From Bacillota bacterium (GTDB taxonomy: Bacteria > Bacillota > Sulfobacillia > Sulfobacillales > Sulfobacillaceae), in contig JAIMBD010000008.1 of assembly GCA_023511625.1 (NCBI GenBank), positions 12,969 through 76,968 on the forward strand: a stretch of DNA of 64,000 nt, in the 5' to 3' direction. The notes below the pieces were generated by a model that saw only the letters and a program-made list of their open reading frames with translations, had not been told where the DNA came from and ran no database searches. This document shows positions 50,170 to 63,913 of the stretch, piece after piece (positions within the stretch are counted from its first letter, which is position 1; each line of letters begins with the position of its first letter). The position numbers were made by a program, and so were the translations under genes.

Positions 50170-51291
50170 TTGCAGGTGAAAGTCCGGTGCTTTCTCCTGG
50201 GAGCTGGGGCATCTTATGGGTACGACGACGCGCTGCCTTGGGAGGAGCGGCCTCCCTTGACGGACCAGGTGTTCACTGCGGCCGCGCAAAGGAGGGTGTT
50301 GGAGAAGCAGGAGTTCGAGGACCTCCGCCGGTTTTTCTATTTCGTCGAGCAGGGGAGGCCGGTGCTGGAGGCGGTTGAGGTCATGGGGGAGGGCGATGAG
50401 CGACCGGTGGTTTCGCCGGAATGGGTGCCCCAACGGCCGTGTCACGTCGAATCGGTCTTAGGCGCCTTAGACGAGGTGGTGCATGCCGTGGTCGGGGTCT
50501 CCGACTCGATGGGGACCAGAGTTGCTGCCAGAGCGTAAAAGTTGTTAAGTTTAATGCTCTACCTCCTTTATGAACTCTTGCGGTCCTATCTTCCCGCATC
50601 CATTGCGGCCACCAACAACTACAGAAAGATGGCCGAGCTGCGGAAGCGCGCTCCCTTCTGGGTCATTACCCTCAATTACGACCTTCTGCTGGAGCAAGCG
50701 TTTGAAGACGCCGGAATCCCCGTATCGATGTGGCCCTGTCCTTCGCCCAACGGCCTGCGGTTGGTCAAACCGCATGGGTCTATCGGATGGTGGAACAGCT
50801 GGAAGGGAGCCTACGGCTTTGCCCGTCCGGTCCCGTTCCCAGAGCGGGTGCGGTTTGTCTACGGCAACCAGGCCGACATGGAACCGCTGCGGTTTTTGTC
50901 GCTGGACGACGTGAGGACCCTTTCGTTTCGGACCTTTGCCGAGGATAATGACAACTTCTATGCTCCCGTGGTGGTGCCTCCGGTCGGCCCCTCGAAACGG
51001 GAAAATGTGCGCTTTCTAAAACGCCTTTGGGACCGTCTCCCGCGTCTGATCGCGCAGGTTTCTGAGCTGATGGTGGTCGGCTGTTCCATTCGCGCCGAAG
51101 ACTCTAAGTTGCGTGACCTTTTGCAGCGACTGCCCCGGCATGTGCGCGTGGTGGTGGCGGACCCGAATCCAGATCCGGTGATGCAAGGTTTGTGGACTGC
51201 GGCGCGCCACCTTCGCCGCCAAAACGTCCGCACGGTGGGCAGTTTTTCCGCCCTGATGGAGGAGTTGCTGGGTGAACACGCGAGGACCTAG
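50170..51291 (+). pseudogene. SIR2-like (SIR2_2 family) protein interrupted by an in-frame TAA at 50536-50538
   Basis: ORFs 50170-50538 and 50542-51291 share one frame. Motifs FLLGAGASYGY, ITLNYDLLLEQAF, LVKPHGSIGW and LMVVGCSIRAEDSKLRDLL. Confidence 0.75.
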
Positions 51292-51723: not shown

Positions 51724-53691
51724 CTACCGGAGCGCCTTTAGCGTCCCCAACAGCCGTTCGAGGTGGTCGATGCGGTCTCGGAGGTGGCGCACTTGCCCCG
51801 CGCTACGGATCCGCGGACGAGGCGGCAGGACGGTGGCACGACCAGGTTTCGGCTCGGTCGCGAATGCCAGAGCCTCCTGCCGCTGATCGGTCGGAAGCGG
51901 CGCGAAGGGCCCGCCCACCTTGCGAAACGGCATGTAAGCGACTGGCGTCCAAGGGCGCCGGGGGAGGCGGGGAAAGTCTCGGGGGGCAAGGCGTTCGCGG
52001 CCGGTGAGATCCAAGGGCGTCCAGTCCGGAGCAGAGGCGATCACGGGCACCATGGCGTTGCCGTCGGGGGAAATTTCTACCGTGACTTCCTCCGGATTGC
52101 CGACCCATTCCTTTAGGCTCTCCCGATGGCTGTGTCGAATGCCGATGACGAGGCCTTGTCCGTGGTCCGCGTAGGACGACCCGAAGCGGTTGTTTCGAAA
52201 GGCCATGGCGGCGCCGACACGGAGGTAGGGGAAGGGTTCGACCACCCATGGCACACGTTCCCCGTTAGCAGTGCGAAACTCCAGCCGCTGGTCAGACCAG
52301 ATCGGGGTGATGGTCTCCACGGGGCGGAATACTTTGAGGTAGCCGGCGGGGACCCACTCTTCCCCTTGGCGGAGGAACAACGGGATGATCCCCGGCGTCT
52401 GGTCAAACCGGAAGGTTGCAGCCGGAGCTCCGTCTGCATCTTGGTTGAAGGCCCGGACCCACACCGTGCGCTGTTGGCTTGGGTATTCGACCCAGGCGAG
52501 ATCTTGCTCCAATCCGCTGTGCACCTGGGCGTCGAGCACCCGCGTCAGACCGCGCGCGCAGAGGTAGGGGATTTCCTCCGCAGGAAGGGCGCGCACGGAC
52601 CTTTGGAAGGCCTCTTCCACCAGGTCCAAAAACCCTGGACTGAGCGAGGCTCCTCCGGAAACGATGACGTGGTCCGGTAACGCCCCGAGCGCGCGCCGCC
52701 CGTCCGCAAGGCAGGCGGCGAATACCTCCCGGGTTATGGCGGCCAGTTCCTCCCAGCGCAAGGAAACCGGCGGCTCTCCGTCCAGGGAAAACCGGGTTGC
52801 GTGACCGGGACCCATCCGGGACAGGTTGACCTTCTCCCGTTCCAAACGCAGTCGTGCCCATTCCGCCGGGGTTTTTCCCGCATCGTCCCGGAATCGCTCC
52901 CAAAGACGCACATCGATGTCACTGCCTCCGATGGCGTCAGATCGGGTGTCCAGCAGGTGAAACGCGAACCGCGAGCCTGATTGCCGGACCACGTCGACTA
53001 CTGCCCAGTCCGTGGTGCCGCCGCCGGCATCGATGACGCAATAGCGACCGGGAGTCGGCTCAGAGTCAGGGTCTTCCAAAAGGGCTGCCAATAAGACGGC
53101 ATACGGCTCAGCTACCGTGCGGACGTTATTATCCGTGAAGGGCCAACCGGCCTGTGTGGCCAACGTCTTGAGGGTGTAGCCGTAGGCGTAGGACTGCGCC
53201 GGTACTCCGAGAACGTACTGGTAATCTTGCGACAACGGGCCGTGGAGGTAGGCTTCGACGGTCTCGCGCAGGCGGCGCAGGATGGCCTTGGCGGCTGCTT
53301 CCGCGAGTTCCAAACTCTCGCGGAGTAGCTCGGGGTCCCGGAAATGGATCTGGTGTTCGATCGCCCACATTCCGCCGAGGTGACGTACCTCGTTGATCTC
53401 CTCTTGCGGGCGGAACTTGGCCGTCAAGAGGCTCTCTTGCGGCATCCACCGGAGGGAGGCAGAACTTTGGCGGTGGGCGAAGACGATGCGCTTGGGGTTG
53501 AGGAGGAGGGTGCCGGGTTCGGGCGGATAGTCTGCCTCGAGGGCCAGAACTTCTCCGGACAAAGTGGCCAGTGCTCGCGAGGGGAGGGGTGCGAACCCAG
53601 GAAGGCTGACGATGACCCCGGAGGGCTCGCGAAGGGCGCAAGCCGTGAAGGTGGTGCCGAAGTCGATGCCGATGACGCGCGGGGAATTCAT
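51724..53691 (-). CDS. Hsp70/actin-fold ATPase with a non-canonical C-terminal beta-rich domain
   Basis: GAGGAGG SD plus ATG 53691 (ATGA overlap with the upstream stop). Motifs VIGIDFGTTFTA, VIDAGGGTTDWAVV and VIVSGGASLSPGF. The tracked ORF's 164 upstream codons are R/P/G-rich and overlap the upstream gene. Confidence 0.85.
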   Translation of the reverse strand: MNSPRVIGIDFGTTFTACALREPSGVIVSLPGFAPLPSRALATLSGEVLALEADYPPEPGTLLLNPKRIVFAHRQSSASLRWMPQESLLTAKFRPQEEINEVRHLGGMWAIEHQIHFRDPELLRESLELAEAAAKAILRRLRETVEAYLHGPLSQDYQYVLGVPAQSYAYGYTLKTLATQAGWPFTDNNVRTVAEPYAVLLAALLEDPDSEPTPGRYCVIDAGGGTTDWAVVDVVRQSGSRFAFHLLDTRSDAIGGSDIDVRLWERFRDDAGKTPAEWARLRLEREKVNLSRMGPGHATRFSLDGEPPVSLRWEELAAITREVFAACLADGRRALGALPDHVIVSGGASLSPGFLDLVEEAFQRSVRALPAEEIPYLCARGLTRVLDAQVHSGLEQDLAWVEYPSQQRTVWVRAFNQDADGAPAATFRFDQTPGIIPLFLRQGEEWVPAGYLKVFRPVETITPIWSDQRLEFRTANGERVPWVVEPFPYLRVGAAMAFRNNRFGSSYADHGQGLVIGIRHSHRESLKEWVGNPEEVTVEISPDGNAMVPVIASAPDWTPLDLTGRERLAPRDFPRLPRRPWTPVAYMPFRKVGGPFAPLPTDQRQEALAFATEPKPGRATVLPPRPRIRSAGQVRHLRDRIDHLERLLGTLKALR

Positions 53692-55679
53692 GGCGCGACC
53701 TCCTCTTCTCGCGAATACGGTTCCACCCAGGACAAAAGCAGCACCTGCCCGCTCCGGGTGAGGCCGGGGGAACGGGGACACACCCAGCGGGGGGGATCCG
53801 GCTGGGGGCCGAGGAGGCGGTGGCGGGTGGGGTCGTAGGGGACCGGGTCGCTGGTGAGCGAGACCCAGGTGACTCCAAGCGGTCGAAGTGCCTCCTCCAG
53901 GGCGGGAAGGTAGGGACCGAGCCCCAAGTCGAAGCACTTTTCGGTTGGGGAGAGAAGTTCCGATAGCACCCGGTCCTCTCGACGCGCCGCCTGTTCCACC
54001 GCGACGGAGAGGGTGACGATATCCGACACCACTGAGGGCTGTCCGTCGGCTGGATTCGGCGAGGTGGGCGAAGCGGTGGCGACAGGGTGACCGTGGCGGA
54101 GGGCGAGGATTTCGCCCACGAGGTCGTGGACGGCCGGGAACTGCCCCCTCAATGCCTCCAGTGCGTCGGCGACCGCCTCCCAAGCGGCGGAAAACCGCTC
54201 CTCGCGCTTTTGCAGAGTTTCGGCCAAGTGGTCGCGCACCCGCTGCAACAGATCCTCGGGGAGTCCCTCTTCGGCCGCAGGGTCGCGGCGCAAGGCGGCT
54301 ACGACCACGGCTGCCTCAAGGTCTCGGAGGCGTCGCTGCCCTTCGCCGACTCCGGCGAGGAGAGAGAAAAGCGGGGGAAGACGGTCGTAGGGCAAGGTTC
54401 CATGGTCCGCGAGATGGTCGTATAGGGCAGTAAGCCCGTCGAACGGCTCGGGTTCGAAGAGGGACGCCACGGGTACGGGGCCTTCGCCCGCCGCAAGGAA
54501 CGCGCGCAGCCAGGCCGCTTTCAGGCCGGGGAGGGGCTCGGTCCAGCCGACGGCGGGAACTTCTCCGGCGGCCTCTTGGGGATGCCGAATCCACCACCCG
54601 ACCCACCGCGAGACAAAGGCCTGTCGAGCTTGGGCATCGGTCCGGGCAGCGCGCGCCCAGAGCGTGCGGACCGAAGGAGGAAAGGCGTCCAACGGGAGTC
54701 CGTGCCAAGTGGCGATGTGCTGGCGGAAGGGACTGTTCGCACCGCGGAGCGCCACGTCCGCCTCCAGGCGGGCACGAAACCAGGCCGGCCAGGTAAAGCT
54801 AGGGGGGGCCAGCGCCAAAGCGGCGGATGCGAGCGGGTCGGTCGCCGTCGCGGCCTGCTCCAAGGTGGCCACGACGGCGCGGGTCCAGCGGTCCCGTTCT
54901 TCGTCCGTGACCGAGATCGTACCGGCTTCGAAGAGGGAGGGCAGCGCGCGGCGCCCGCGAGCGGTGCGCAGGAGGGCGTGAAAGGCTCGGTCGCGCACGT
55001 CGGGATCGGCCACGGCAAAGAAGCGGCGGATAAGGTCGGTGGAGGCGACCACGAGGGGCTTCCAATTGGGGGAGCTCGGGGGCTCGGGGCGACTGAGCAG
55101 CGAAAGCCATGGGCCAGACCCCAGCGGGCGCGGAGACCTGGCGGCGTCGTCGTGGCTCAGCCGCACCTTGTGCCACAGGGTCAACTGCACCGCAGCAGGG
55201 AGGGTCGACCACTCGGCAGCGGCGTCTTCGGGAATAGCGGATCCGGGCGTGCGGATCCAGGACCACAACGGGGAGGGGTCGCCTTTCTGGCGCCGCTCCA
55301 GTTCTTGGGCGACAACGTCGGCCACCGCAGCGTGCGACGAGGTATAGGCCTGCCACAAAAGCCAGCGCGGCCAGGCCGAAAGCCGTTCCAACAGCCAACG
55401 CCACCCCTCCTCCCAATCGGGGAAGGTCTGCGCCGGGACGATAATCCCTTTGGCCAAGGCGGCGGCCATACCCGCTAGGGAGCCTTCGTGGGGCAACCGC
55501 AAAAGGCGGGCCACCGCCTCTTCGCTCGCGCCATCTTGGCCAGGTTCTGACATCCAGGCCTCGGTGTGCGCGCGCAGGACTCGGAGATACTGGGGCCGCG
55601 CCTCAGCGGGCCGCAGCCGTTGCTTGCGCGCCCATGCTTGAGGAGAGAGTCGAGCTACGCTCCACAGGGCGTCAAACAT
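53688..55679 (-). CDS. Large helical (Trp/Ala/Leu-rich) protein with a C-terminal coiled coil and a GrpE-like beta domain
   Basis: The last ~75 aa, LPALEEALRPLGVTWVSLTSDPVPYDPTRHRLLG....WVCPRSPGLTRSGQVLLLSWVEPY, follow the GrpE C-terminal pattern (L..L...GV..i...g..fDP..H.a.......V....GY...g.vlR.a.V.V). They are preceded by long helices. Confidence 0.75.
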   Translation of the reverse strand: MFDALWSVARLSPQAWARKQRLRPAEARPQYLRVLRAHTEAWMSEPGQDGASEEAVARLLRLPHEGSLAGMAAALAKGIIVPAQTFPDWEEGWRWLLERLSAWPRWLLWQAYTSSHAAVADVVAQELERRQKGDPSPLWSWIRTPGSAIPEDAAAEWSTLPAAVQLTLWHKVRLSHDDAARSPRPLGSGPWLSLLSRPEPPSSPNWKPLVVASTDLIRRFFAVADPDVRDRAFHALLRTARGRRALPSLFEAGTISVTDEERDRWTRAVVATLEQAATATDPLASAALALAPPSFTWPAWFRARLEADVALRGANSPFRQHIATWHGLPLDAFPPSVRTLWARAARTDAQARQAFVSRWVGWWIRHPQEAAGEVPAVGWTEPLPGLKAAWLRAFLAAGEGPVPVASLFEPEPFDGLTALYDHLADHGTLPYDRLPPLFSLLAGVGEGQRRLRDLEAAVVVAALRRDPAAEEGLPEDLLQRVRDHLAETLQKREERFSAAWEAVADALEALRGQFPAVHDLVGEILALRHGHPVATASPTSPNPADGQPSVVSDIVTLSVAVEQAARREDRVLSELLSPTEKCFDLGLGPYLPALEEALRPLGVTWVSLTSDPVPYDPTRHRLLGPQPDPPRWVCPRSPGLTRSGQVLLLSWVEPYSREEEVAP

Positions 55680-57198
55680 GTTGGGGGCGGGGGCCTCCTT
55701 CCTGCGTCACCTCGAGAGCGCGCCGCAGTCTGTCCGCCATGACCTCACGCCAGTGCACGGCGTCGGGCCGGGGCGTTACGGCCACAAACTCGATGTCGGG
55801 GTGGGTGTCGGCGCGCCACACCACCTCCGGCTGCTCGGGAATGATGCAGATCACCGGCGGGTCGAGGTGCCGCGTGCGATACATGAGGGCCGACCAATAC
55901 TGGGACAGCTGCCCCCGAGCGGAGGGGCCGGTGGGTTCATCGGGCCAAAGGCGCTGGCGGGGTTGGTATTTGACTTCCATGATCAAGGCCAAGGGAGCAG
56001 GGAGGTCGCCCCGCCAGTAGGTGAGGAGAAAATCGGGACGGTTGTGCTGACCGCTCATCCACAAGCCATCGGTCTCCTCGGCCCGGCTCCCCTGGTCGGG
56101 GAGCGGCCGATCGTAGTCGAGGAGGAGGGTCCACGGGCCCTGGGTCCAGCGAAAGCGGCTCGCGAGGGGCACCGGGTCGTGTAGGCCCATACGTCGGCCG
56201 AGGCGTACCCAAGTCGGCTCCTCCTGAAGCTTCCAGCCCTGCTCGGCCAAGAGTTGCACCAACTGGCGGAGCACCCAGAGCTCGTAGATCTGCGAGGTGG
56301 GGCGCATACGAGTCAGGTGCGGTCCCCGGCGCTCTGGGGGGCCAAGGCCTCGGCGGAGTTCCTGAAAAGCTGCTTGGGCCCGCCGGTAGCGGCGCCGCCG
56401 CGCGCCCCGTTGGGTCAGTCGCGAAGGGCTTCCCTCGGCGGGCTCGACGGTATCCCACACCGGGTGTTCCAACAAGCGCAAGGCTCGGTGATGCAGCGCC
56501 CGAAGGCGCTGCCGCCGTTCGTCCAGTCCCGCCAAAGCGAGGGGCGCGGCTTCCACCGCCCGCAGGCGCGCGCCTAAGAACCGGGCCAACCATCGCAGTT
56601 GATCCCGCAAGACGCGGTGGTCGCGGGTGTTGAAGGTCAGGCTCGGGGGGCCGGGACGGCGCCGGAATTCCCCTTCCGGCCAAATCAGGACGCGGGTTAA
56701 GGCATCGAGGTAGGCCGCCGCCCGATTCAGATCGGCATCGGCCATCGGCGCGGACCAGTCGGCGTGGGCCAATACCCCTTCCTGGTATTCCCGGCACAAG
56801 CCGGGGACCCAGGACTCCAGTTCGGCGATCATGTGTTCGGGAAAGGACGCATAGTGAGGGCGTTGCGGCTTGACCTCGATGCGGCCCTCCCATAAGACGT
56901 GGTCGCGAAGACGTACCGCCACGGCATACGAGCCCGGAAACCAAAGGGCCTTGGGTTGGTCCCACTCCAGCATCTGGCCGGCCGGCACCGGATCCAACCC
57001 TTCCACAACCAGAGTCGCCGCTTCTGGCCCCTCCCACCGTAGCTGAAACCGGTCATATTCCCGAAGCTCGAGGTGGGCGGGGACAGGCCGCCACTCTCCC
57101 CATGTCCACCCCTCGGTGGGATTCCCCTGGCGCCGCCGCCACTCGACCCGAATGGCTGGCGGCGTGGATTCGTGGCGCACGGCGTATTCAGAGGACAA
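55672..57198 (-). CDS. PD-(D/E)xK nuclease-domain protein (DUF2357/DUF524-like McrC substitute)
   Basis: AAGGAGG SD 6 nt before TTG 57198. The C-terminal RPDFLLTYWRGDLPAPLALIMEVKYQ is a D...E-x-K signature. It lies directly downstream of the McrB-like gene. Confidence 0.8.
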   Translation of the reverse strand: MSSEYAVRHESTPPAIRVEWRRRQGNPTEGWTWGEWRPVPAHLELREYDRFQLRWEGPEAATLVVEGLDPVPAGQMLEWDQPKALWFPGSYAVAVRLRDHVLWEGRIEVKPQRPHYASFPEHMIAELESWVPGLCREYQEGVLAHADWSAPMADADLNRAAAYLDALTRVLIWPEGEFRRRPGPPSLTFNTRDHRVLRDQLRWLARFLGARLRAVEAAPLALAGLDERRQRLRALHHRALRLLEHPVWDTVEPAEGSPSRLTQRGARRRRYRRAQAAFQELRRGLGPPERRGPHLTRMRPTSQIYELWVLRQLVQLLAEQGWKLQEEPTWVRLGRRMGLHDPVPLASRFRWTQGPWTLLLDYDRPLPDQGSRAEETDGLWMSGQHNRPDFLLTYWRGDLPAPLALIMEVKYQPRQRLWPDEPTGPSARGQLSQYWSALMYRTRHLDPPVICIIPEQPEVVWRADTHPDIEFVAVTPRPDAVHWREVMADRLRRALEVTQEGGPRPQHV

Positions 57199-58822
57199 GG
57201 CCAGCCTCCTTCATCTCTTGAATCTCCTCCAACACCGCCAAAGACCGCTCGAGCGCACCCCACGGTGAAGCCTGGAGAAGCCCTCGAAGCGCGGGCAGCG
57301 CCTCGGCGAAATACTCCCATTCGATGCCGGCCCCGCGGAATCGGGAGAGGACGCGGGCGGCGAAGACCTCGTCCCACGCCTTGGCCGCCGTCCAGTGGTC
57401 GGGACCGGCTACCGCCGGCACCGCTCCGACTATCGCCCGCATGGCGTCGAGCGCTCGCCAGCCCACGAGCGGGCGGCGTCGCACAGCGTTTAAGCGGTCA
57501 AAGAAGGCATACTCCTCGGCCGAAAGTGCCGCGGGCGGCGGAGCGAGAGGAAGCGAGACCGGAGGCAAGGGTGGCGGAGGAGCCGATTCGCCGCGTTGAA
57601 AGCGGGCGTGGCGGAGGACGATGTAGGTCACGCGGTCCAAAAACTTGTCGGTCAGCCCATGCGAGGCCTCATCCAAGTTGACGGTGCCGATCCAGTAGAG
57701 GTTCTTCCCGATGGATACGCGCGGCGGGTATCGGTGGCGGTTCAGGCACGAATTTTCCTCATCGGGGGGATAAAGAGGCCACCCGCCGGTATCCGCCGGG
57801 TGCTCCCACAAGCTGAGCCAGGGGGCGAGATAATGTTCGACCCGCGCCAGGTTGAGCTCGTCGAGACACACCACGTGCGGGAGCGCCGGATACTCGGCGG
57901 CATGGAGCAGGACGTTGACGAGATTCCCGAGCGCAGGCCGAAAGAGGCGGGCGGTGGGATCGTAATGGCCGATGACCTGCTCGGAGGAGACCCAGGAGGG
58001 CTCCACCGTCAACCAGGCCAGACGACTGTCGGATTGACGGCATTCGAGATAACCAGCGAGGGCCAAGGCCAGACTCGACTTTCCCAACCCCCCGGTGCCG
58101 CTCAAGACCACGAATTGCCCCGCGGCGAGGCTGGCCAGGAACAACACCAAGTCGTCGGGGTCAAAGACCAAACCGCGGCGCCGGACAAAGTTTAGAAAGG
58201 CTGGAAGCGGCCACTCTACCGCCTTCTCGGCAGGTGCGGTCGCCACGGGGCCGTTGGTTTCGCGGGACATCCGAATTCCTTGTGGACGGCGGGGGAGGAA
58301 CCATCCTTCCTCCTCGCGAATAGCGTCGGCGGGCGGGTTTTCGAACGTCACCGGGGACTGGCGGACGGCCAGATAATATCCCGTGCCTTGCTTTTTTAGG
58401 GTCAATCCGCGGACCACCTTGCCCTCGGCGATGGCCCGCACTTCGCGCGGAGGAGGATCGGCGACGGGACCACGCCAGCGCTCGCGGTGCTCGGCCAGGT
58501 AGGACTCGACCGCAAACGGCGTGGAAGCGGGGATGACCGGGCACCATTCGTATCCGTCCGCGGCGGGCACGGGATGGAGCGCCAGGTGTTTGACCCCCTC
58601 CCCGTCGACTTCGTACGTGACGGTGGTCTCGGCCAGAAAGGCGCTGAGGGTCTGCGACTTCCGCCACCACCCGTTGCGCGAGCGGTCGACGACCCGGGCG
58701 AGTTCGGCCGCGTCGACGGAAAAGGTGGCGGCGTCGGGCCATACCTGTTCGATCTGCAGGGTGGGCAGGTCCTCGCTGCGCTCGGGCAGGTGGTGGAGCC
58801 GCAACCGGCCTACATGCCGCAT
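57188..58822 (-). CDS. McrB-type AAA+ NTPase with an uncharacterised ~230-aa N-terminal domain
   Basis: Walker A VVLSGTGGLGKSSLA, Walker B HVVCLDELNLARVEHY, and the McrB-family segment LYWIGTVNLDEASHGLTDKFLDRV. Confidence 0.85.
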   Translation of the reverse strand: MRHVGRLRLHHLPERSEDLPTLQIEQVWPDAATFSVDAAELARVVDRSRNGWWRKSQTLSAFLAETTVTYEVDGEGVKHLALHPVPAADGYEWCPVIPASTPFAVESYLAEHRERWRGPVADPPPREVRAIAEGKVVRGLTLKKQGTGYYLAVRQSPVTFENPPADAIREEEGWFLPRRPQGIRMSRETNGPVATAPAEKAVEWPLPAFLNFVRRRGLVFDPDDLVLFLASLAAGQFVVLSGTGGLGKSSLALALAGYLECRQSDSRLAWLTVEPSWVSSEQVIGHYDPTARLFRPALGNLVNVLLHAAEYPALPHVVCLDELNLARVEHYLAPWLSLWEHPADTGGWPLYPPDEENSCLNRHRYPPRVSIGKNLYWIGTVNLDEASHGLTDKFLDRVTYIVLRHARFQRGESAPPPPLPPVSLPLAPPPAALSAEEYAFFDRLNAVRRRPLVGWRALDAMRAIVGAVPAVAGPDHWTAAKAWDEVFAARVLSRFRGAGIEWEYFAEALPALRGLLQASPWGALERSLAVLEEIQEMKEAGLVL

Positions 58823-59355
58823 CCCGGCTCTCCTTTCTCCAGCAAAAACTGGCGGCAGATGGCACTTAAGGTGTTGACGAAATCAGAATAAAAATTGTCC
58901 GGAAGGGGACCGACGCGCTGGTCGTCTGCGATCAGCCGGTCTACGGCGGATTTGACCTCGTTGAGCTCCCGTTGCAGACCCTCGACTGCACCCTGTAGCT
59001 CCCGCATCCGGCTTGCGGTCTCGCGCATGACGGCCAGAAGTTCCTCCCGCAGGTCGTGGGCGGCCTCTACCATGTCTGCCAAGGACCGGTCAGGCGCCTC
59101 TGCCTTGGGTTGGGGAGACGACGCTGGAGGTATCGGGTCGGGCCGAGCGTAGTGCTCGAGGAAGTGGAGAGCCAAGGGATGGCCCTGGCGGGCGAGTTCG
59201 GTCATGGCCGAACGAAACCGGAGAAGGTTTTTGGGCTTTATCTCATAGCCAGTAAACCGCGGCAGCCCCATTTTCTGGGCACGTCGTGCAAAATCCAGAA
59301 TCAAATTATCGGGCACGGAGGCCACCTGCGTTTCGGGATCAGGGGCGGCGTGCAT
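58810..59355 (-). CDS. Hypothetical protein: small N-domain, Pro-rich linker and coiled coil
   Basis: ATG 59355 follows AAGGAA. The C-terminal heptad-like segment is DLREELLAVMRETASRMRELQGAVEGLQRELNEVKSAVDRLI. It overlaps both neighbours. Confidence 0.6.
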   Translation of the reverse strand: MHAAPDPETQVASVPDNLILDFARRAQKMGLPRFTGYEIKPKNLLRFRSAMTELARQGHPLALHFLEHYARPDPIPPASSPQPKAEAPDRSLADMVEAAHDLREELLAVMRETASRMRELQGAVEGLQRELNEVKSAVDRLIADDQRVGPLPDNFYSDFVNTLSAICRQFLLEKGEPGCGM

Positions 59356-59500
59356 GAGCGGTTCCTTTCCAACTGGCGATGGCTTCTTTGAGCCAGTCAA
59401 TCTCTTCCTGTAGGAAGGCGACCATTTCGGCCTCGAGGTGCTCGGTGCGCCGTTCGACCTGTTTCCACGCTGTAATCCGCAAACCGGAAAGTTTCCGCAT
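59339..59500 (-). CDS. Small (53-aa) helical ORF heading the operon
   Basis: GGAGGG SD 7 nt before ATG 59500. MRKLSGLRITAWKQVERRTEHLEAEMVAFLQEEIDWLKEAIASW. It overlaps the next gene by 17 nt. Confidence 0.4.
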   Translation of the reverse strand: MRKLSGLRITAWKQVERRTEHLEAEMVAFLQEEIDWLKEAIASWKGTAHARRP

Positions 59501-59548: not shown

Positions 59549-59945
59549 GCTGTCGAAATTCCTGCCGATTTTTGGCTCATCGGGGAAGGTACCGGGGGTC
59601 GGGCGTATGGAAGGTCCACCCCTCCATGGCGGTCCGCCCGGCGCCGAGGTTTGAGGACGAAAGACTCCTGAAGTCCAAGACACAGTAAGCCAGCAGGAAA
59701 AATCCCCGGCGGTTGCAGTCAAAATCAATACCCCCTGGGAGAATGGGGTGCGGCAGGGCAGAAACGCCCCTCGCAGCCGTGGCCTTGCCACAGTCCCCGG
59801 GGCCTGCAACCCGGTTCGGGCGCACATGGCCGGATTTGCAGGTGCAACGCCGGTGGCGGGCCACGCGTCGGCGATGGCGGCGGCCGTGGGCACGTTGGTG
59901 AGCCCCTCCGCCCGCTTGATTTGGCCGGGTTTGATGCGGTTGCCA
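59549..59945. repeat. Degenerate duplicate (copy 1) of the xdh 3' end plus its downstream flank
   Basis: Colinear matches to 60669-61015: gctgtcRaaMttcctgccgatt (59549 / 60669), ggcgtatggaa (59602 / 60703), and a 30-nt perfect block ggcgatggcggcggccgtgggcacgttggt (59870-59899 / 60940-60969). Confidence 0.7.
59765..59945 (-). pseudogene. 3'-terminal fragment of a molybdopterin-binding dehydrogenase gene (paralogous copy of the 60838-62931 C-terminus)
   Basis: The minus-strand translation GNRIKPGQIKRAEGLTNVPTAAAIADAWPATGV matches GPNNIKGVGELTNVPTAAAIANAVAAATGV of the intact gene. Confidence 0.6.
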
Positions 59946-60189: not shown

Positions 60190-60423
60190 ATGAATGTTTG
60201 TTATACCGCTCACGCTCGGGAACGGATGAAGGAACGCGGCGTCACGGAGGAGGAAGTGGAGGAGTGCTTAAGATCGCCCGACGTCACGTATCCTGACGGA
60301 AATGGGAACGTCAATGCTGTCAAGCATGGAATCCGCGTCGTTTACAGAGACGACGGCCACAGGAAGAGGGTGATCACCGTTGTCCGGCGAGGAGCCTTTT
60401 CTCCGGGATCCGATCGCGTCTAA
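60190..60423 (+). CDS. DUF4258-family toxin-like protein
   Basis: YTAHARERMKERGVTEEEVEECL... fits the DUF4258 pattern. 77 aa. Confidence 0.7.
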   Translation: MNVCYTAHARERMKERGVTEEEVEECLRSPDVTYPDGNGNVNAVKHGIRVVYRDDGHRKRVITVVRRGAFSPGSDRV

Positions 60424-60637
60424 TTACGATGAGGAAGCCGATGCCCTTTATCTTCGGTATCGCACCCTCCCCGTGGCCTTCCAAGAGGAGGTCACCCCCT
60501 CGGTCATTGTCGACCGCGGGCCGGCGCGCGAGGTGGTGGGGGTCGAGGTCTTGGCTCCGCGTCGGAACGCGGCGGATGCCATGCGGTGGTTGCGGGCGCA
60601 CCGTTTGGACGTGGGCCCGCTTAGGTCGTGGGCATAG
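60380..60637 (+). CDS. DUF2283-family antitoxin-like protein
   Basis: NYDEEADALYLRY......E....VIVD....EVVGVEVL fits the DUF2283 pattern. It overlaps the upstream gene by 44 nt. Confidence 0.65.
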   Translation: MSGEEPFLRDPIASNYDEEADALYLRYRTLPVAFQEEVTPSVIVDRGPAREVVGVEVLAPRRNAADAMRWLRAHRLDVGPLRSWA

Positions 60638-60668: not shown

Positions 60669-61015
60669 GCTGTCAAACTTCCTGCCGATTGGAATATGCC
60701 GTGGCGTATGGAAACGCAGTGGGCGGAGTCCCGCAGGGTCGGGGCGCAGGGATGCTGTTCCTTGCATAACCCTACGCAGGCGAACAAGCCCCGCCGCCCA
60801 AACCGGCGCGGCGGGGCCGGCAAGATGCCGAAACGCGTCATCCGGCCGCCGTGCCTTCGGCGGCCAACGCCCAAAACAGGCGCTCGGCACTCAGTGGCAG
60901 GGTGCGCAGGCGCACGCCGGTGGCGGCCGCCACGGCGTTGGCGATGGCGGCGGCCGTGGGCACGTTGGTCAGCTCGCCCACGCCCTTGATGTTGTTCGGC
61001 CCGATCCCCTTGCCC
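60669..61015. repeat. Copy 2 of the degenerate duplication (native xdh 3' end plus flank)
   Basis: See 59549-59945. Confidence 0.7.
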
Positions 61016-62931
61016 CCTTCCACCAGCACGATGCGAAACGGGGGGAGGTCCCGGCTTGAGGGGATCTTGAACTCGCCGAGGTTGGCCGCCGTCACGCGCC
61101 CATCTTCGAGGCCCACGTCTTCCATCACGGCAAACCCGTACCCCATGGCCAGTCCTCCCTCCAGTTGAATTTGATGGGCCACGGGGTTGATGATGTCGGC
61201 CACGTCCACCGCTGCGACCAGGTTCAGCACGCGAATCTCGCCGGTTTCGGGGTCGACCGCCACCTCCGCCACTTCGGCGCAGTAGGAGGTGACGGGCGGC
61301 ACCTCCTCAGGGCGGACGATGACTTCCACTGCCTCCGTCCCGCCGCGGGCGCGAAATGCGGCCAGGGCCTGGTCCAGGGCCTGGAGCAGGGTGACGGTGA
61401 CCCAACTGCCGCCGACTCCGTCGTCATGCGGCAGTTCGCTGGTCGAACCCTGCCGGACCCGCACTTTTTCCGGCGGCAGAGCCAAGGCCCGGACCAAGGC
61501 GCGGTGCACCACCGTGTGCGAGCCCGTGCCGGTCTCGGGCGTGGGGATGACGGCCGTGACTGCGCCGTCGGCCTCGGGCTCAAGCCTAAGGCTCGTCGAG
61601 ACGGGGCGAGTGCCGCGGTTGTAGAGGGCGACGCCCAACCCGTAGCGCCACCCCGCCGGAATCGGGGGGCGGGCGACGGCGGCGAGCGCAGCATCGAGGG
61701 TCTCGAGCCCTCGGTGTTCGAGGGCGCGATGTCCGTGGGCGTCGGCCTCGCCGGTGGTGAGAAGATTGTTCCGGCGCAATGTGATGGGGTCGATGCCGAC
61801 CTTGGCCGCGAGTTCATCTAAGGCCGACTCTACCGCGAAGACGGTCTGCGGCGAGCCCGGCGCACGCATGTGGCCACCGGGCAGGGTGTGGGTGTAGGCG
61901 ATGCGGGAGCGGATGGCGAGAGCCGGAATGCGGTAGGGGCTTCCGGCCTCTCGCACCCCGAAGAGCTCCACGGAAGGCACGGGTTTGTAGCCGGCGTAGG
62001 CGCCGCCGTTAAAAAGGGCGTCGACACAAAGCGCCGTAAGCCGACCCGAGGCGTCGGCCCCGAGCCGCACGCGGATACGGCCGGCGTGGCGGGAATCGGT
62101 GGCTGCGAGGTCCTCGTTGTAGCGGAGCTGAAGGCGCACCGGCCGCCCGAGCCGCCGCGCGAGCTCAAGGCACAGCACCGGCTCGACCACCGACCCCTTG
62201 CCGCCAAAGTCCCCGCCGATGGCCACTGGGTGCACCTCCACCGTTTCCGGGGCGACGCCGTACACCGCCGCCACCTGCGCGCGGAGGCGATAGGGAGATT
62301 TGTTGGTCACCCAAAGGTGCATCTTGCCGTCAGGGTCGACCTCGGCCAAAAAGGCCTGGGGCTCGAGATATCCATGCTGGCCGGCAGGGGTGGTGTAGAT
62401 TTGGTCGACGACGTGGGCCGAGGCGGAAAGCGCCGCCTCGACGTCCCCGCCGCGCCGGATGTCCACCACCGACTGGAGGTTGGGGCCGGATTCAGGGGTG
62501 ACGACGGCCCCTGGATAGGCCCACGGTTCGGAATGGACCCGGGGCGCGTCGGGGGCGAGGGCCTGCTCGGGGTCGAGGACGGCCGAGAGGGGTTCGTAGT
62601 CCACGCGAACCTTGGCTGCGGCCCGGTCCGCGAGCGTCCGGCTTTCGGCTACCACCACGGCTACCGGTTCGCCGGCGTAGCGTGCCTGTTCTCGGGCCAG
62701 GAGGGGGACGTCTTGGACGATGCGCCCATAGGTGCGGGCGGGGAAGTCTTCGGCCGTAAAGACGCCGAGGACCCCGGGCAGCGCACGGGCGGCCGCGGCG
62801 TCGATGTGCACGATGCGGGCATGGGGGAAAGGGCTTCGCACCAAGGCGGCGTGGCAAAGACGGGGGCGGGCGACGTCGGCGGTGTAGGCCATGGTGCCAC
62901 GGACTTTGGCGGGGGCGTCGATGCGCGGCAT
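60838..62931 (-). CDS. Xanthine dehydrogenase/aldehyde oxidase-family molybdopterin-binding subunit
   Basis: AAGGAGG SD plus ATG 62931. RIDAPAKVRGTMAYTAD...RSPFPHARI..ID, GGDFGGKG, and the C-terminal GVGELTNVPTAAAIANAV. Confidence 0.9.
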   Translation of the reverse strand: MPRIDAPAKVRGTMAYTADVARPRLCHAALVRSPFPHARIVHIDAAAARALPGVLGVFTAEDFPARTYGRIVQDVPLLAREQARYAGEPVAVVVAESRTLADRAAAKVRVDYEPLSAVLDPEQALAPDAPRVHSEPWAYPGAVVTPESGPNLQSVVDIRRGGDVEAALSASAHVVDQIYTTPAGQHGYLEPQAFLAEVDPDGKMHLWVTNKSPYRLRAQVAAVYGVAPETVEVHPVAIGGDFGGKGSVVEPVLCLELARRLGRPVRLQLRYNEDLAATDSRHAGRIRVRLGADASGRLTALCVDALFNGGAYAGYKPVPSVELFGVREAGSPYRIPALAIRSRIAYTHTLPGGHMRAPGSPQTVFAVESALDELAAKVGIDPITLRRNNLLTTGEADAHGHRALEHRGLETLDAALAAVARPPIPAGWRYGLGVALYNRGTRPVSTSLRLEPEADGAVTAVIPTPETGTGSHTVVHRALVRALALPPEKVRVRQGSTSELPHDDGVGGSWVTVTLLQALDQALAAFRARGGTEAVEVIVRPEEVPPVTSYCAEVAEVAVDPETGEIRVLNLVAAVDVADIINPVAHQIQLEGGLAMGYGFAVMEDVGLEDGRVTAANLGEFKIPSSRDLPPFRIVLVEGGKGIGPNNIKGVGELTNVPTAAAIANAVAAATGVRLRTLPLSAERLFWALAAEGTAAG

Positions 62932-62968
62932 ACCGTCCTCCTTTACGCGGTCTACCGGGGGATGGCGA

Positions 62969-63913
62969 TCAGGCGAGGGTGAGGACCACCTTGCCGGTGG
63001 CGGGTTCGCGGAAGAGCGACTCCTGGGCTTCGCCGGCTTGTTCCAAGGGGTAGCGGCGCCCAATGACCGGCCGCGCGAGGCCCGCCTGAAAGAGCCCGGC
63101 CAAGGCGTGGTGGATGCGGACGCGCTCCTCCGGCGTCACCTGGCGGTTGGTGTAGCCGCGCACGGAGACGGTTTTGCCGAGGAGGTCCGGCGTTTGGACC
63201 GTCACCGGACCGGTGGCCCCGATGACCACGATGGTGCCGAGCGGCTTCGCCAACCGAAGGTCGAGGTCGAGCGTCTGTGCGCCGCGCATGGTCAAGATGG
63301 CGGGGTACCCTTCGCCGCTCGTCACCGCCTTGAGCCCCTCAAGGTCGTCGTGAGCCAAGGCCGCCTCGGCCCCATGGGCTTGGACGAGTTCGCGGCCGGC
63401 CTCGGTGGAAGCAGTCCCCACTACTCTGAGCCCGTGCGCGCGCCCGATCTGTACCGCGGCCATCCCGACGCCGCCTGAGGCCCCGTGGACCAAAACCCAG
63501 TCCCCAGGCACCGCGCCGCTCAAGGTAAGCGCCCGCCACGCCGTAAGATAGGGGATGCCGATGGCGGCGCCTTGCTCGAAACTCAAATGCGCGGGGAGCG
63601 GCCACACGGCCGCCTCGGGGGCATTGGTCTCTTCGGCGTAGGTGGGCGCGCCGGCCACGTACACCCGATCGCCGACCTGCACCCGGGTCACCCCGGGGCC
63701 TACGGCTATCACCTCTCCGGCCCCGTCGCTGCCGGGGATGTAGGGGACTGCCGCTTGGCCCACAGCCCCAAGGCGGGTCATGCGGTCTACCGGGTTGACG
63801 CCAGCGGCGTAAAGTCGTACCCGGACCTCGCCTGGCCCCGGTGGTGGCAGAGTCTCTTCTTGCAGGTGCATACCTTCGGGCCCGCCGAGGGCCCGTACCA
63901 CGATCGCCCGCAT
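62969..63913 (-). CDS. NADPH:quinone oxidoreductase / MDR-family zinc-type dehydrogenase
   Basis: MRAIVVRALGGPEGM.L.E...P.PGPGEVRVRLYAAGVNPVD, VLVHGASGGVG, and the ending GKVVLTLA. Confidence 0.85.
   Translation of the reverse strand: MRAIVVRALGGPEGMHLQEETLPPPGPGEVRVRLYAAGVNPVDRMTRLGAVGQAAVPYIPGSDGAGEVIAVGPGVTRVQVGDRVYVAGAPTYAEETNAPEAAVWPLPAHLSFEQGAAIGIPYLTAWRALTLSGAVPGDWVLVHGASGGVGMAAVQIGRAHGLRVVGTASTEAGRELVQAHGAEAALAHDDLEGLKAVTSGEGYPAILTMRGAQTLDLDLRLAKPLGTIVVIGATGPVTVQTPDLLGKTVSVRGYTNRQVTPEERVRIHHALAGLFQAGLARPVIGRRYPLEQAGEAQESLFREPATGKVVLTLA

Follow-up and report, generated by a model that had tools for sequence, protein, structure and literature searches.

A six-gene operon of thermophilic and thermo-acidophilic Bacillota joins a McrB-type NTPase and a predicted McrC-like nuclease to an Hsp70-like protein

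In a 64,000-nt stretch of the Bacillota bacterium contig JAIMBD010000008.1 (GCA_023511625.1, positions 12,969–76,968; hereafter the window), six overlapping minus-strand genes form one real, co-conserved unit that joins a McrB-type AAA+ nucleoside triphosphatase (NTPase) and a predicted McrC-like nuclease to an Hsp70-like protein and a solenoid protein with a candidate GrpE-type tail. On the basis of gene content, conservation and surroundings, we favour the view that the six genes encode a McrBC-derived multi-subunit machine of the NxD branch, most likely one that defends against phages or other mobile DNA with a dedicated Hsp70-type module. McrBC–Hsp70 systems are already known as a kind, and the six-gene architecture was found neither in the literature searched nor in PADLOC.

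A co-conserved six-gene unit

The six open reading frames (ORFs; 53, 181, 544, 508, 663 and 655 aa) lie head to tail between 59500 and 51724 and overlap at every junction (by 17, 13, 11, 8 and 4 nt from gene 1 to gene 6, the final overlap being ATGA), an arrangement that a model's first reading of the letters (hereafter the first-pass annotation) had described and that we reproduced in coordinates, sizes and overlaps. The same annotation credited each gene with its own GGAGG-type Shine–Dalgarno sequence, which holds in part: Shine–Dalgarno-like purine runs precede all six starts, and those of genes 1, 3, 4 and 6 are strong (GGAGGG, AAGGAG, AAGGAGG and GAGGAGG, respectively), whereas that of gene 2 is weaker (GGAAAGGAA) and that of gene 5 (AAGGAGG) lies ~14 nt 5′ of the start. 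The protein motifs that it quoted (GTGGLGKS, VVCLDELN, GTVNLDE, RPDFLL...IMEVKY, IGIDFGTT, DAGGGTTD and SGGAS) were all found. ORFs of 819, 234 and 222 aa in the mechanical listing are 5′ over-extensions of genes 6, 2 and 1. The G+C content of the operon (0.64–0.70) is the same as that of the remaining window; a promoter and terminator scan of the operon returned no promoters, fewer terminator-like sites than in shuffled sequences and nothing convincing internally, and Rfam gave no family in the region. When all six proteins were scanned against Pfam, NCBIfam and PADLOC at E ≤ 0.1, genes 1, 2, 4 and 5 had no matches. The genes and their parts are as follows (window coordinates).

59339..59500, minus strand: gene 1, 53-aa helical protein, probably a small adaptor or a coiled-coil partner
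58810..59355, minus strand: gene 2, 181 aa, conserved helical N-terminal region and coiled-coil-like C-terminal segment
57188..58822, minus strand: gene 3, 544-aa McrB-like AAA+ NTPase, NxD clade by sequence
58076..58099, minus strand: gene 3 Walker A, GTGGLGKS (aa 242–249), aligned to the McrB P-loop
57851..57874, minus strand: gene 3 Walker B, VVCLDELN (aa 317–324), aligned to McrB ‘iiDEiN’
57668..57679, minus strand: gene 3 shortened signature N-L-D-E (NxD; aa 382–385), aligned to E. coli NTAD (NxxD)
55672..57198, minus strand: gene 4, 508-aa predicted McrC-like protein, TTG start
55969..56034, minus strand: gene 4 predicted nuclease core, D389 (RPDF) to E408-V-K410 (MEVKY), invariant in family alignments
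56281–56283, minus strand: gene 4 E306, upstream of the nuclease core, with Q430..Y434 downstream
53688..55679, minus strand: gene 5, 663 aa
54090..55679, minus strand: gene 5 solenoid (aa 1–530), all-alpha and HEAT/ARM-like in the AlphaFold2 (AF2) model
53688..54035, minus strand: gene 5 candidate GrpE-like C-terminal module (aa 549–663 and stop), from hhalign and AF2 topology
51724..53691, minus strand: gene 6, 655 aa
52537..53691, minus strand: gene 6 predicted Hsp70/actin-fold nucleotide-binding domain (aa 1–385), from Pfam HSP70 and DnaK matches
51724..52536, minus strand: gene 6 C-terminal domain (aa 386–655 and stop), family-conserved, ending in a short amphipathic helix

At least eight lineages share this gene order, with protein identity to the window falling from 78% to 22–30%, in hosts or contigs of ~48% to 67% G+C. 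Synteny of the six genes holds wherever contigs extend, that is, in the window and L005 and in the groups listed below. Because the six genes keep their order and their overlapping style across independent contigs and genomes (22–78% identity), the operon lies far beyond chance. Neighbourhoods of gene 5 and gene 6 homologues, in which the first-pass annotation suggested looking for the six-gene order, keep the order and are co-conserved with the McrB/nuclease pair; wherever the contig permitted the check, genes 5 and 6 were never seen without McrBC-like genes.

L003/L004, Logan contigs: 53/181/546/509/661 aa, then contig end
L006, metagenome-assembled genome (MAG) Bacillota CF.Solf.bin.16: small ORF/187/559/488/650/~640 aa
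L007/L008, Logan contigs: 56/180/556/492/659/652 aa
L009, Logan contig: 56/179/563/497/660/650 aa
L010, Logan contig: partial
L017, Logan contig: 56/220/548/501/556 aa
L013–L015, Sulfobacillus thermosulfidooxidans ZJ (L013) and DX (L014; accessions of both identified via PMC5418355) and a third NCBI assembly (L015): 56/222/547/498/671 aa, a 740-nt gap, 618 aa

The family is rare and narrowly distributed. An exhaustive HMMER search for the 663-aa protein gave 7 relatives in 1.84 billion cluster representatives, one GTDB species representative carries the gene 5 family, and the distribution is confined to thermo-acidophilic or thermophilic Bacillota (Sulfobacillus, Alicyclobacillaceae-type MAGs and the ‘Solf’ MAG). 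A Mo-hydroxylase and a toxin–antitoxin pair adjoin the operon in the window; L003 has ThrRS there, L006 has glycosyltransferases and Peptidase_M78, and L013 has other genes. As the flanks differ from genome to genome, the module moves as a block and behaves as a mobile cassette.

Three loci depart from the common layout. In S. thermosulfidooxidans ZJ (L013, 12017–12755), a 740-nt non-coding gap with no Rfam match and no ORF longer than 59 aa separates the homologues of genes 5 and 6, which overlap or abut in the other loci checked. At only 556 aa, the gene 5 homologue of L017 (4057–5727, protein P0010) lacks the C-terminal GrpE-like module; just 65 nt of contig follow it, and a split gene and an assembly problem are indistinguishable there. 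Beside a full-length gene 5 homologue, L002 (2123–3490, protein P0003) encodes an Hsp70-like homologue of only 455 aa that stops shortly after an ‘IPLFF’ motif and looks like a truncated gene 6.

Predicted properties of the six proteins

Motifs and profile matches place gene 3 among the McrB-type AAA+ NTPases, in the NxD clade, a major McrB branch that Bell et al. 2024 (PMC11090510) define by a deletion variant of the signature and that takes in the CoCoNuT systems as well. The first-pass assignment to McrB is borne out by the match to the E. coli McrB structure (PDB 6hz4, E = 8.4e-7), in which Walker A, Walker B and the signature region are aligned, and by NCBIfam McrB (1e-6, under the equivalog cutoff). 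Among the proteins compared, the closest annotated relative is the AAA ATPase of the L. lactis plasmid p275A (L011; 2e-41, 26% identity over 358 aa), and the Rhizobium locus L018, a type III-B-like CoCoNuT, encodes a CnuB-like protein that matches at 2e-23. The NxD(E) signature reads VNLDE in the window, NMDE in L006, NTDE in L011 and NEDE in L018, compared with N-T-A-D in E. coli. PADLOC PDC-M26A matches at 9.1e-31 over the AAA+ core alone (aa 212–361 against profile positions 309–451 of 724); the PDC-M26 system is not satisfied, given that the other five proteins have no PADLOC match at E ≤ 0.1, and ‘PDC-M26’ is not mentioned in the literature searched. The N-terminal ~210 aa are proline-rich (21 Pro and 13 Gly in aa 1–211) and not Hsp70-like in Pfam and PDB searches, and no coiled coil appears to be fused to gene 3 (no heptad-like segment in the N-terminal 211 aa by a crude heuristic and no coiled-coil-type Pfam match).

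Gene 6 is Hsp70-like with conserved nucleotide-binding motifs and is a predicted ATPase, in agreement with the Hsp70 fold proposed in the first-pass annotation. It matches Pfam HSP70 at 4.2e-6 (25.7 bits against a gathering cutoff of 20.6), and its residues 4–282 match the nucleotide-binding domains (NBDs) of DnaK and BiP at values down to 1.4e-7. IG(I/V)DFGT(T/S), EP(Y/F)A, DxGGGTxDWA and GG(A/G)xxxPG recur in all family members whose sequence extends over them, the window protein having IGIDFGTT (phosphate-1), DAGGGTTDWA (phosphate-2) and GGASLSPG (adenosine). The C-terminal ~270 aa are conserved across five lineages and, at the sequence level, gave no similarity to the DnaK substrate-binding domain (SBD; hhalign P = 0.7, against an unverified DnaK SBD sequence). 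The gene 6 homologue of L007 (5951–7906) matches the PADLOC candidate PDC-M61B weakly (E = 0.002), a hint that another candidate system contains an Hsp70/actin-fold protein.

With moderate confidence, gene 4 is predicted to be a McrC-like nuclease with intact catalytic residues. For the PD-(D/E)xK assignment of the first-pass annotation, the motif itself proved invariant across the family, whereas its profile support is weak. PF04411 (PDDEXK_7, a McrC-type nuclease family) is the sole or top Pfam match in all six gene 4 members tested, always in the same register and at sub-threshold E values of 0.0036–0.33, and DUF2357 lies upstream of it in one of the six (L006, E = 0.008). Family alignments hold E306, D389, E408, K410, Q430 and Y434 invariant, and the motifs align with those of an L. 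lactis plasmid ‘nuclease domain-containing protein’ (hhalign P = 0.0074). PDB sequence searches with the single sequence and with the profile returned noise only. The AF2 model (mean pLDDT 65; pLDDT, predicted local distance difference test) has an N-terminal beta-sandwich (~17–110), a helical region (~119–285) and an alpha/beta PD-(D/E)xK module (~300–496); with this model, Foldseek gave only Ig-like matches, to the N-terminal sandwich (E = 3e-3). The order of these parts matches the Ig + DUF2357 + PD-(D/E)xK layout of some CnuC proteins (CoCoNuT types I-A and II; PMC11090510).

Gene 5 is modelled with higher scores (mean pLDDT 80.8) as an all-alpha solenoid over aa 1–530 that is followed by a disordered linker and a tail with a long helix (550–575), two short helices and six or seven short strands over 602–654. 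By sequence it has no match in Pfam, PADLOC, NCBIfam or PDB, and PDB searches with the single sequence and with the profile returned noise only. Foldseek on the whole model, in which the solenoid dominated the outcome, matched solenoids only weakly (those of CRM1, AP2, beta-catenin and condensin HEAT subunits; E ≥ 0.013), with no GrpE in the top 50; a HEAT/ARM-type solenoid agrees with the ‘HEAT-like repeats’ of CnuD.

Many of the invariant columns of the gene 5 family fall in the tail, in the motif Y/F-D-P-x-R-H ... SPGL-x-R ... W-x-E-P, and here the evidence is suggestive of a GrpE-type module. The GrpE-like domain named in the first-pass annotation fails hidden Markov model significance in Pfam and PDB, but it finds support in a targeted hhalign comparison and in AF2 topology. 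Against a reference alignment of E. coli GrpE (checked against 1DKG), G. kaustophilus GrpE (4ANI) and human GRPEL1, the tail gave a single match at P = 1.2e-3 (5.8e-4 with nine sequences), a score attained by none of 540 column-shuffled or block-shuffled controls. The match is collinear with GrpE residues ~127–190 (that is, the last helix and the beta domain) and pairs (F/Y)DPxRH with FDPxxH and PGL-x-R-x-G with GY-x-L-x-GR-x-x-R; at low stringency it extends to GrpE LLPVxDxLxRAL against (L/F)SPxEKxFDL of gene 5, and most AF2 strands of the tail fall at GrpE-aligned positions.

Gene 1 homologues of 53–56 aa head the operon in L003, L006, L007, L009, L013 and L017, with E16, L22, E23, E33 and W36 invariant at 31% identity. 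Gene 2 is conserved in five lineages with its invariant residues kept; it has only weak Pfam matches of coiled-coil type, and a crude heptad heuristic marks a coiled-coil-like segment at aa ~104–149, which makes it analogous to the stand-alone coiled-coil protein of CoCoNuTs (CnuA).

Proposed function and competing explanations

The six proteins very likely form one complex, and this complex is probably a defence system. In the proposed mechanism, gene 3 would form an NTP-driven AAA+ ring with gene 4 as its McrC-like partner and the single nuclease effector, and genes 1 and 2 would be small helical or coiled-coil adaptors. Gene 6 would be the Hsp70-like ATPase, for which the GrpE-like module of gene 5 could be a built-in exchange or docking factor. 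Recognition or licensing would then fall to the Hsp70-like pair, through the binding of a foreign or aberrant macromolecule (protein or RNA), and NTP-dependent cleavage of nucleic acid to the McrB/McrC core. We give slightly less than an even chance to a nucleotide cycle run by gene 5 and gene 6, with exchange stimulated by the GrpE-like module, and regard it as rather unlikely that such a cycle licenses or targets the motor-nuclease.

A more specific version, which we think unlikely, has a self-contained, J-protein-independent Hsp70 cycle (gene 6 with the solenoid/GrpE-type gene 5) as an immune sensor or licensing device that switches on the McrB-type ring and nuclease. The trigger would be a bound phage protein or other non-native polypeptide, or docking on the coiled-coil adaptors, the latter speculatively likened to the docking of DnaK on ClpB, an AAA+ ring, at its coiled-coil M-domain. 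If true, chaperone-type protein recognition would be wired directly to a restriction nuclease, and by mechanism this would differ from what has been proposed for CoCoNuT CnuD, namely RNA binding without hydrolysis.

The defence context of the operon consists of a SIR2 gene and a toxin–antitoxin-like pair that adjoin it in the window, and of a helicase matching PDC-S68 directly downstream in L007/L008. The two window neighbours, both outside the operon, are as follows.

50170..51291, plus strand: SIR2_2-like gene (Pfam SIR2_2 2.5e-9; PADLOC SIR2 1e-5)
60190..60637, plus strand: DUF4258/DUF2283 toxin–antitoxin-like pair (Pfam 3.2e-10 and 2.1e-8)

The SIR2_2-like gene lies downstream of the operon, is convergent with it and has exactly one in-frame stop (50536–50538). 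Its pieces are an upstream one of 122 aa with a GAGAS motif and a downstream one of 249 aa with the SIR2_2 match; the split could reflect a pseudogene, a sequencing error or read-through. The DUF4258/DUF2283 pair lies upstream, divergent from gene 1, and L005 has the same Pfam matches. In the window, the pair sits between the copies of a 93-nt direct repeat (59852–59944 and 60922–61014, 73% identity), one of which duplicates the 3′ end of the Mo-hydroxylase gene (60838–63063, minus strand), and this position suggests an insertion scar. The SIR2-like gene, toxin–antitoxin cassette and gene-fragment duplication of the first-pass annotation are therefore all real, as Pfam and the repeat attest, and the local G+C dips that it listed can be seen but are marginal (0.62–0.65 against a window mean of ~0.67).

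In L007 (7972–11499) and L008 (7996–11523), a 1175-aa RecD-like superfamily 1 helicase directly follows the six-gene cassette and matches, at full length (E = 0), the single-gene PADLOC defence candidate PDC-S68. We considered this helicase, the only one seen at the loci, as a seventh component and rejected it, as PDC-S68 is a single-gene candidate and the helicase is absent from the window, L006 and L013.

A number of observations weigh against a defence machine of this design. The defence-island signal around the cassette is present but modest and non-uniform, the neighbours in L006 and L013 being mostly housekeeping or metabolic genes; scanning IMG/VR viral contigs and JGI metagenome contigs for the family patterns brought up no relatives, and the rarity of the family limits any statistical ‘guilt by association’. 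The module has no DNA methyltransferase or other classical restriction–modification marker, and the literature searched holds no experimental phenotype for the operon or for any CoCoNuT-type system. For individual genes, the McrC assignment of gene 4 never attains a curated threshold and Foldseek did not retrieve McrC from its AF2 model. No residue of gene 6 can be confidently equated with DnaK Lys70, so the competence of this protein for hydrolysis is uncertain, and Pfam found no DnaJ/J-domain match in any operon protein, although a host DnaJ could still serve. With regard to the tail of gene 5, Pfam GrpE (PF01025) matched none of seven isolated C-terminal modules at E ≤ 10, nor the full protein; the PDB profile search gave no GrpE structure, and the hhalign probability is just 19–29%.

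The main rival is an RNA-targeting, CoCoNuT-like system, in which the Hsp70-like protein is a poorly hydrolysing, nucleotide-bound binder of RNA or ribosomes that guides the McrBC core to viral or aberrant RNA, with the PD-(D/E)xK domain acting on RNA or transcribed DNA; we see this as having a small but real chance of being correct. Bell et al. proposed an RNA-binding, non-hydrolysing role for CnuD, and both the NxD clade and the association of Hsp70 with HEAT proteins are hallmarks that they discuss (PMC11090510). The gene 6 C-terminal domain, which is dissimilar in sequence to the DnaK peptide-binding domain, and a Lys70 equivalent that is not clearly conserved fit such a binder. However, neither the six genes nor the flanks examined contain a HEPN, CSD, YTH, SmpB-like or UPF1-like helicase component, and the nuclease motif, which the Hsp70-bearing CoCoNuT types have in inactivated form (PMC11090510), is intact here. 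Moreover, the nucleotide-binding motifs of gene 6 show no degeneration and are kept wherever a member covers them, a GrpE-like exchange module would imply an active nucleotide cycle, and there is no sequence similarity to the one type III-B-like CnuD compared.

Improbable, in our assessment, is that the module serves thermo-acidophilic Bacillota in housekeeping or under stress rather than in immunity, for example in repairing or processing DNA or in nuclease-coupled protein quality control. The restricted host range, the largely metabolic neighbours in L013 and L006 and a G+C content equal to that of the host region would suit a module of this kind, but the occurrence of the operon is extremely patchy and very low (one GTDB species representative, and 7 representatives among 1.84 billion clusters), and its flanks vary and include SIR2, toxin–antitoxin and PDC-S68 genes. 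To our knowledge, moreover, all characterised McrB/McrC pairs are restriction systems. That a McrBC pair and an Hsp70-like pair are chance neighbours, or that some of the ORFs are GC-rich artefacts, is very improbable and is effectively refuted by synteny: ~67% G+C does yield many long spurious ORFs in the window, and genes 1, 2, 4 and 5 have no significant family matches, but genomes of 48–67% G+C carry homologues of all six ORFs in unchanged order at 22–78% identity, the junctions overlap by 4–17 nt, and genes 5 and 6 do not occur without McrBC-like genes where contigs allow the check.

Whichever of these functions applies, McrBC–Hsp70 coupling has hitherto been a computational prediction only, and the operon is the simplest form of it found here (one intact-motif nuclease and no helicase, HEPN or TerY-P layers). 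Given that its Hsp70 is still Hsp70-like and has a candidate built-in exchange factor, the operon offers a tractable test of an ATPase cycle (sensing and ring activation) against a static RNA binder, and its presence in cultured S. thermosulfidooxidans strains means that native material exists. If the GrpE-like assignment is true, this would be the first GrpE-type module recruited outside general bacterial proteostasis within the literature searched.

Comparison with known systems

The first-pass annotation held that no McrBC–Hsp70 system had been described, and this is contradicted by Bell et al. 2024 (eLife, PMC11090510), who reported NxD-clade McrBC systems joined to Hsp70-like NBD/SBD and HEAT-like proteins; in type III CoCoNuTs, the Hsp70 + HEAT proteins are CnuD and CnuCD. 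Within the literature searched, theirs is the sole work that links Hsp70 to McrB/McrC. GrpE is not mentioned in that paper, neither the MAG of the window nor the term Hsp70 is present in its supplementary text, and no set of PADLOC v2 models covers the operon. The operon is therefore partly anticipated by a named system, in kind but not in exact architecture, and it fits none of the CoCoNuT types of Bell et al.

[quoted passage not shown] Unlike type III CoCoNuTs, the operon lacks both a UPF1-like helicase (CnuH) and a second nuclease (Vsr, PLD or HEPN), as judged from its six genes and the flanks examined. Its McrB-like protein has no fused long coiled coil, the coiled-coil-like segment being in gene 2; its PD-(D/E)xK motifs are intact, in contrast to those of Hsp70-bearing CoCoNuT types; and the HEAT-like and Hsp70-like parts that CnuD combines are split over two genes. 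[quoted passage not shown]

A type III-B-like CoCoNuT locus lies on the Rhizobium leguminosarum OyaliB plasmid p2 (L018, 316687–341103), and encodes a helicase (AAA_11/AAA_12) with an endonuclease (MTES_1575/DUF559), coiled-coil, NxD McrB-like and DUF2357 proteins, and a protein of 786 aa without a Pfam match; the dense defence island around it includes Shedu, a restriction endonuclease (BPTD_3080), a DNA methyltransferase and a DUF262 protein. Unlike the CnuD-like protein of this locus, the operon Hsp70 is recognisable by Pfam and has conserved nucleotide-binding motifs, and hhalign found no similarity between genes 4, 5 and 6 and the CnuC and CnuD of this one locus.

Two simpler systems share the core. 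The three-gene operons of Bacillota plasmids (L. lactis p275A and B. pseudomycoides pN451-2.2), which are probably CoCoNuT type I-B-like, encode a hypothetical protein, an NxD AAA ATPase and a DUF2357 nuclease; they resemble the six-gene operon in an upstream accessory gene and in nuclease motifs that align in register, and differ in having no Hsp70-like or HEAT-like genes, with an ATPase of 650–664 aa and a nuclease of 608 aa. E. coli McrBC (Type IV restriction) likewise has a McrB-type AAA+ NTPase with a PD-(D/E)xK partner gene immediately after it, but the operon has NxD rather than NxxD, another N-terminal domain and four extra conserved genes.

On the chaperone side, the operon resembles DnaK–GrpE in pairing an Hsp70 nucleotide-binding domain with a protein that bears a candidate GrpE-like C-terminal module. 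It differs in having no J-domain protein and no sequence-detectable DnaK-type SBD, and in carrying the GrpE-like part, which is below hidden Markov model significance, on a 530-aa solenoid. Armadillo-type Hsp70 exchange factors are mentioned in PMC13580251, and, as a lead from the literature, the solenoid body of gene 5 recalls the ARM-type factors Fes1/HspBP1. Finally, the early-branching NxD McrB GTPases fused to an Hsp70-like NBD/SBD (PMC11090510), a group that we compared by its description, share with the operon an NxD GTPase coupled to an Hsp70-like unit outside the CoCoNuT clade, with helicase and HEPN forming no part of the definition; what sets the operon apart from these fusions is that its Hsp70 is encoded by a separate 3′ gene.

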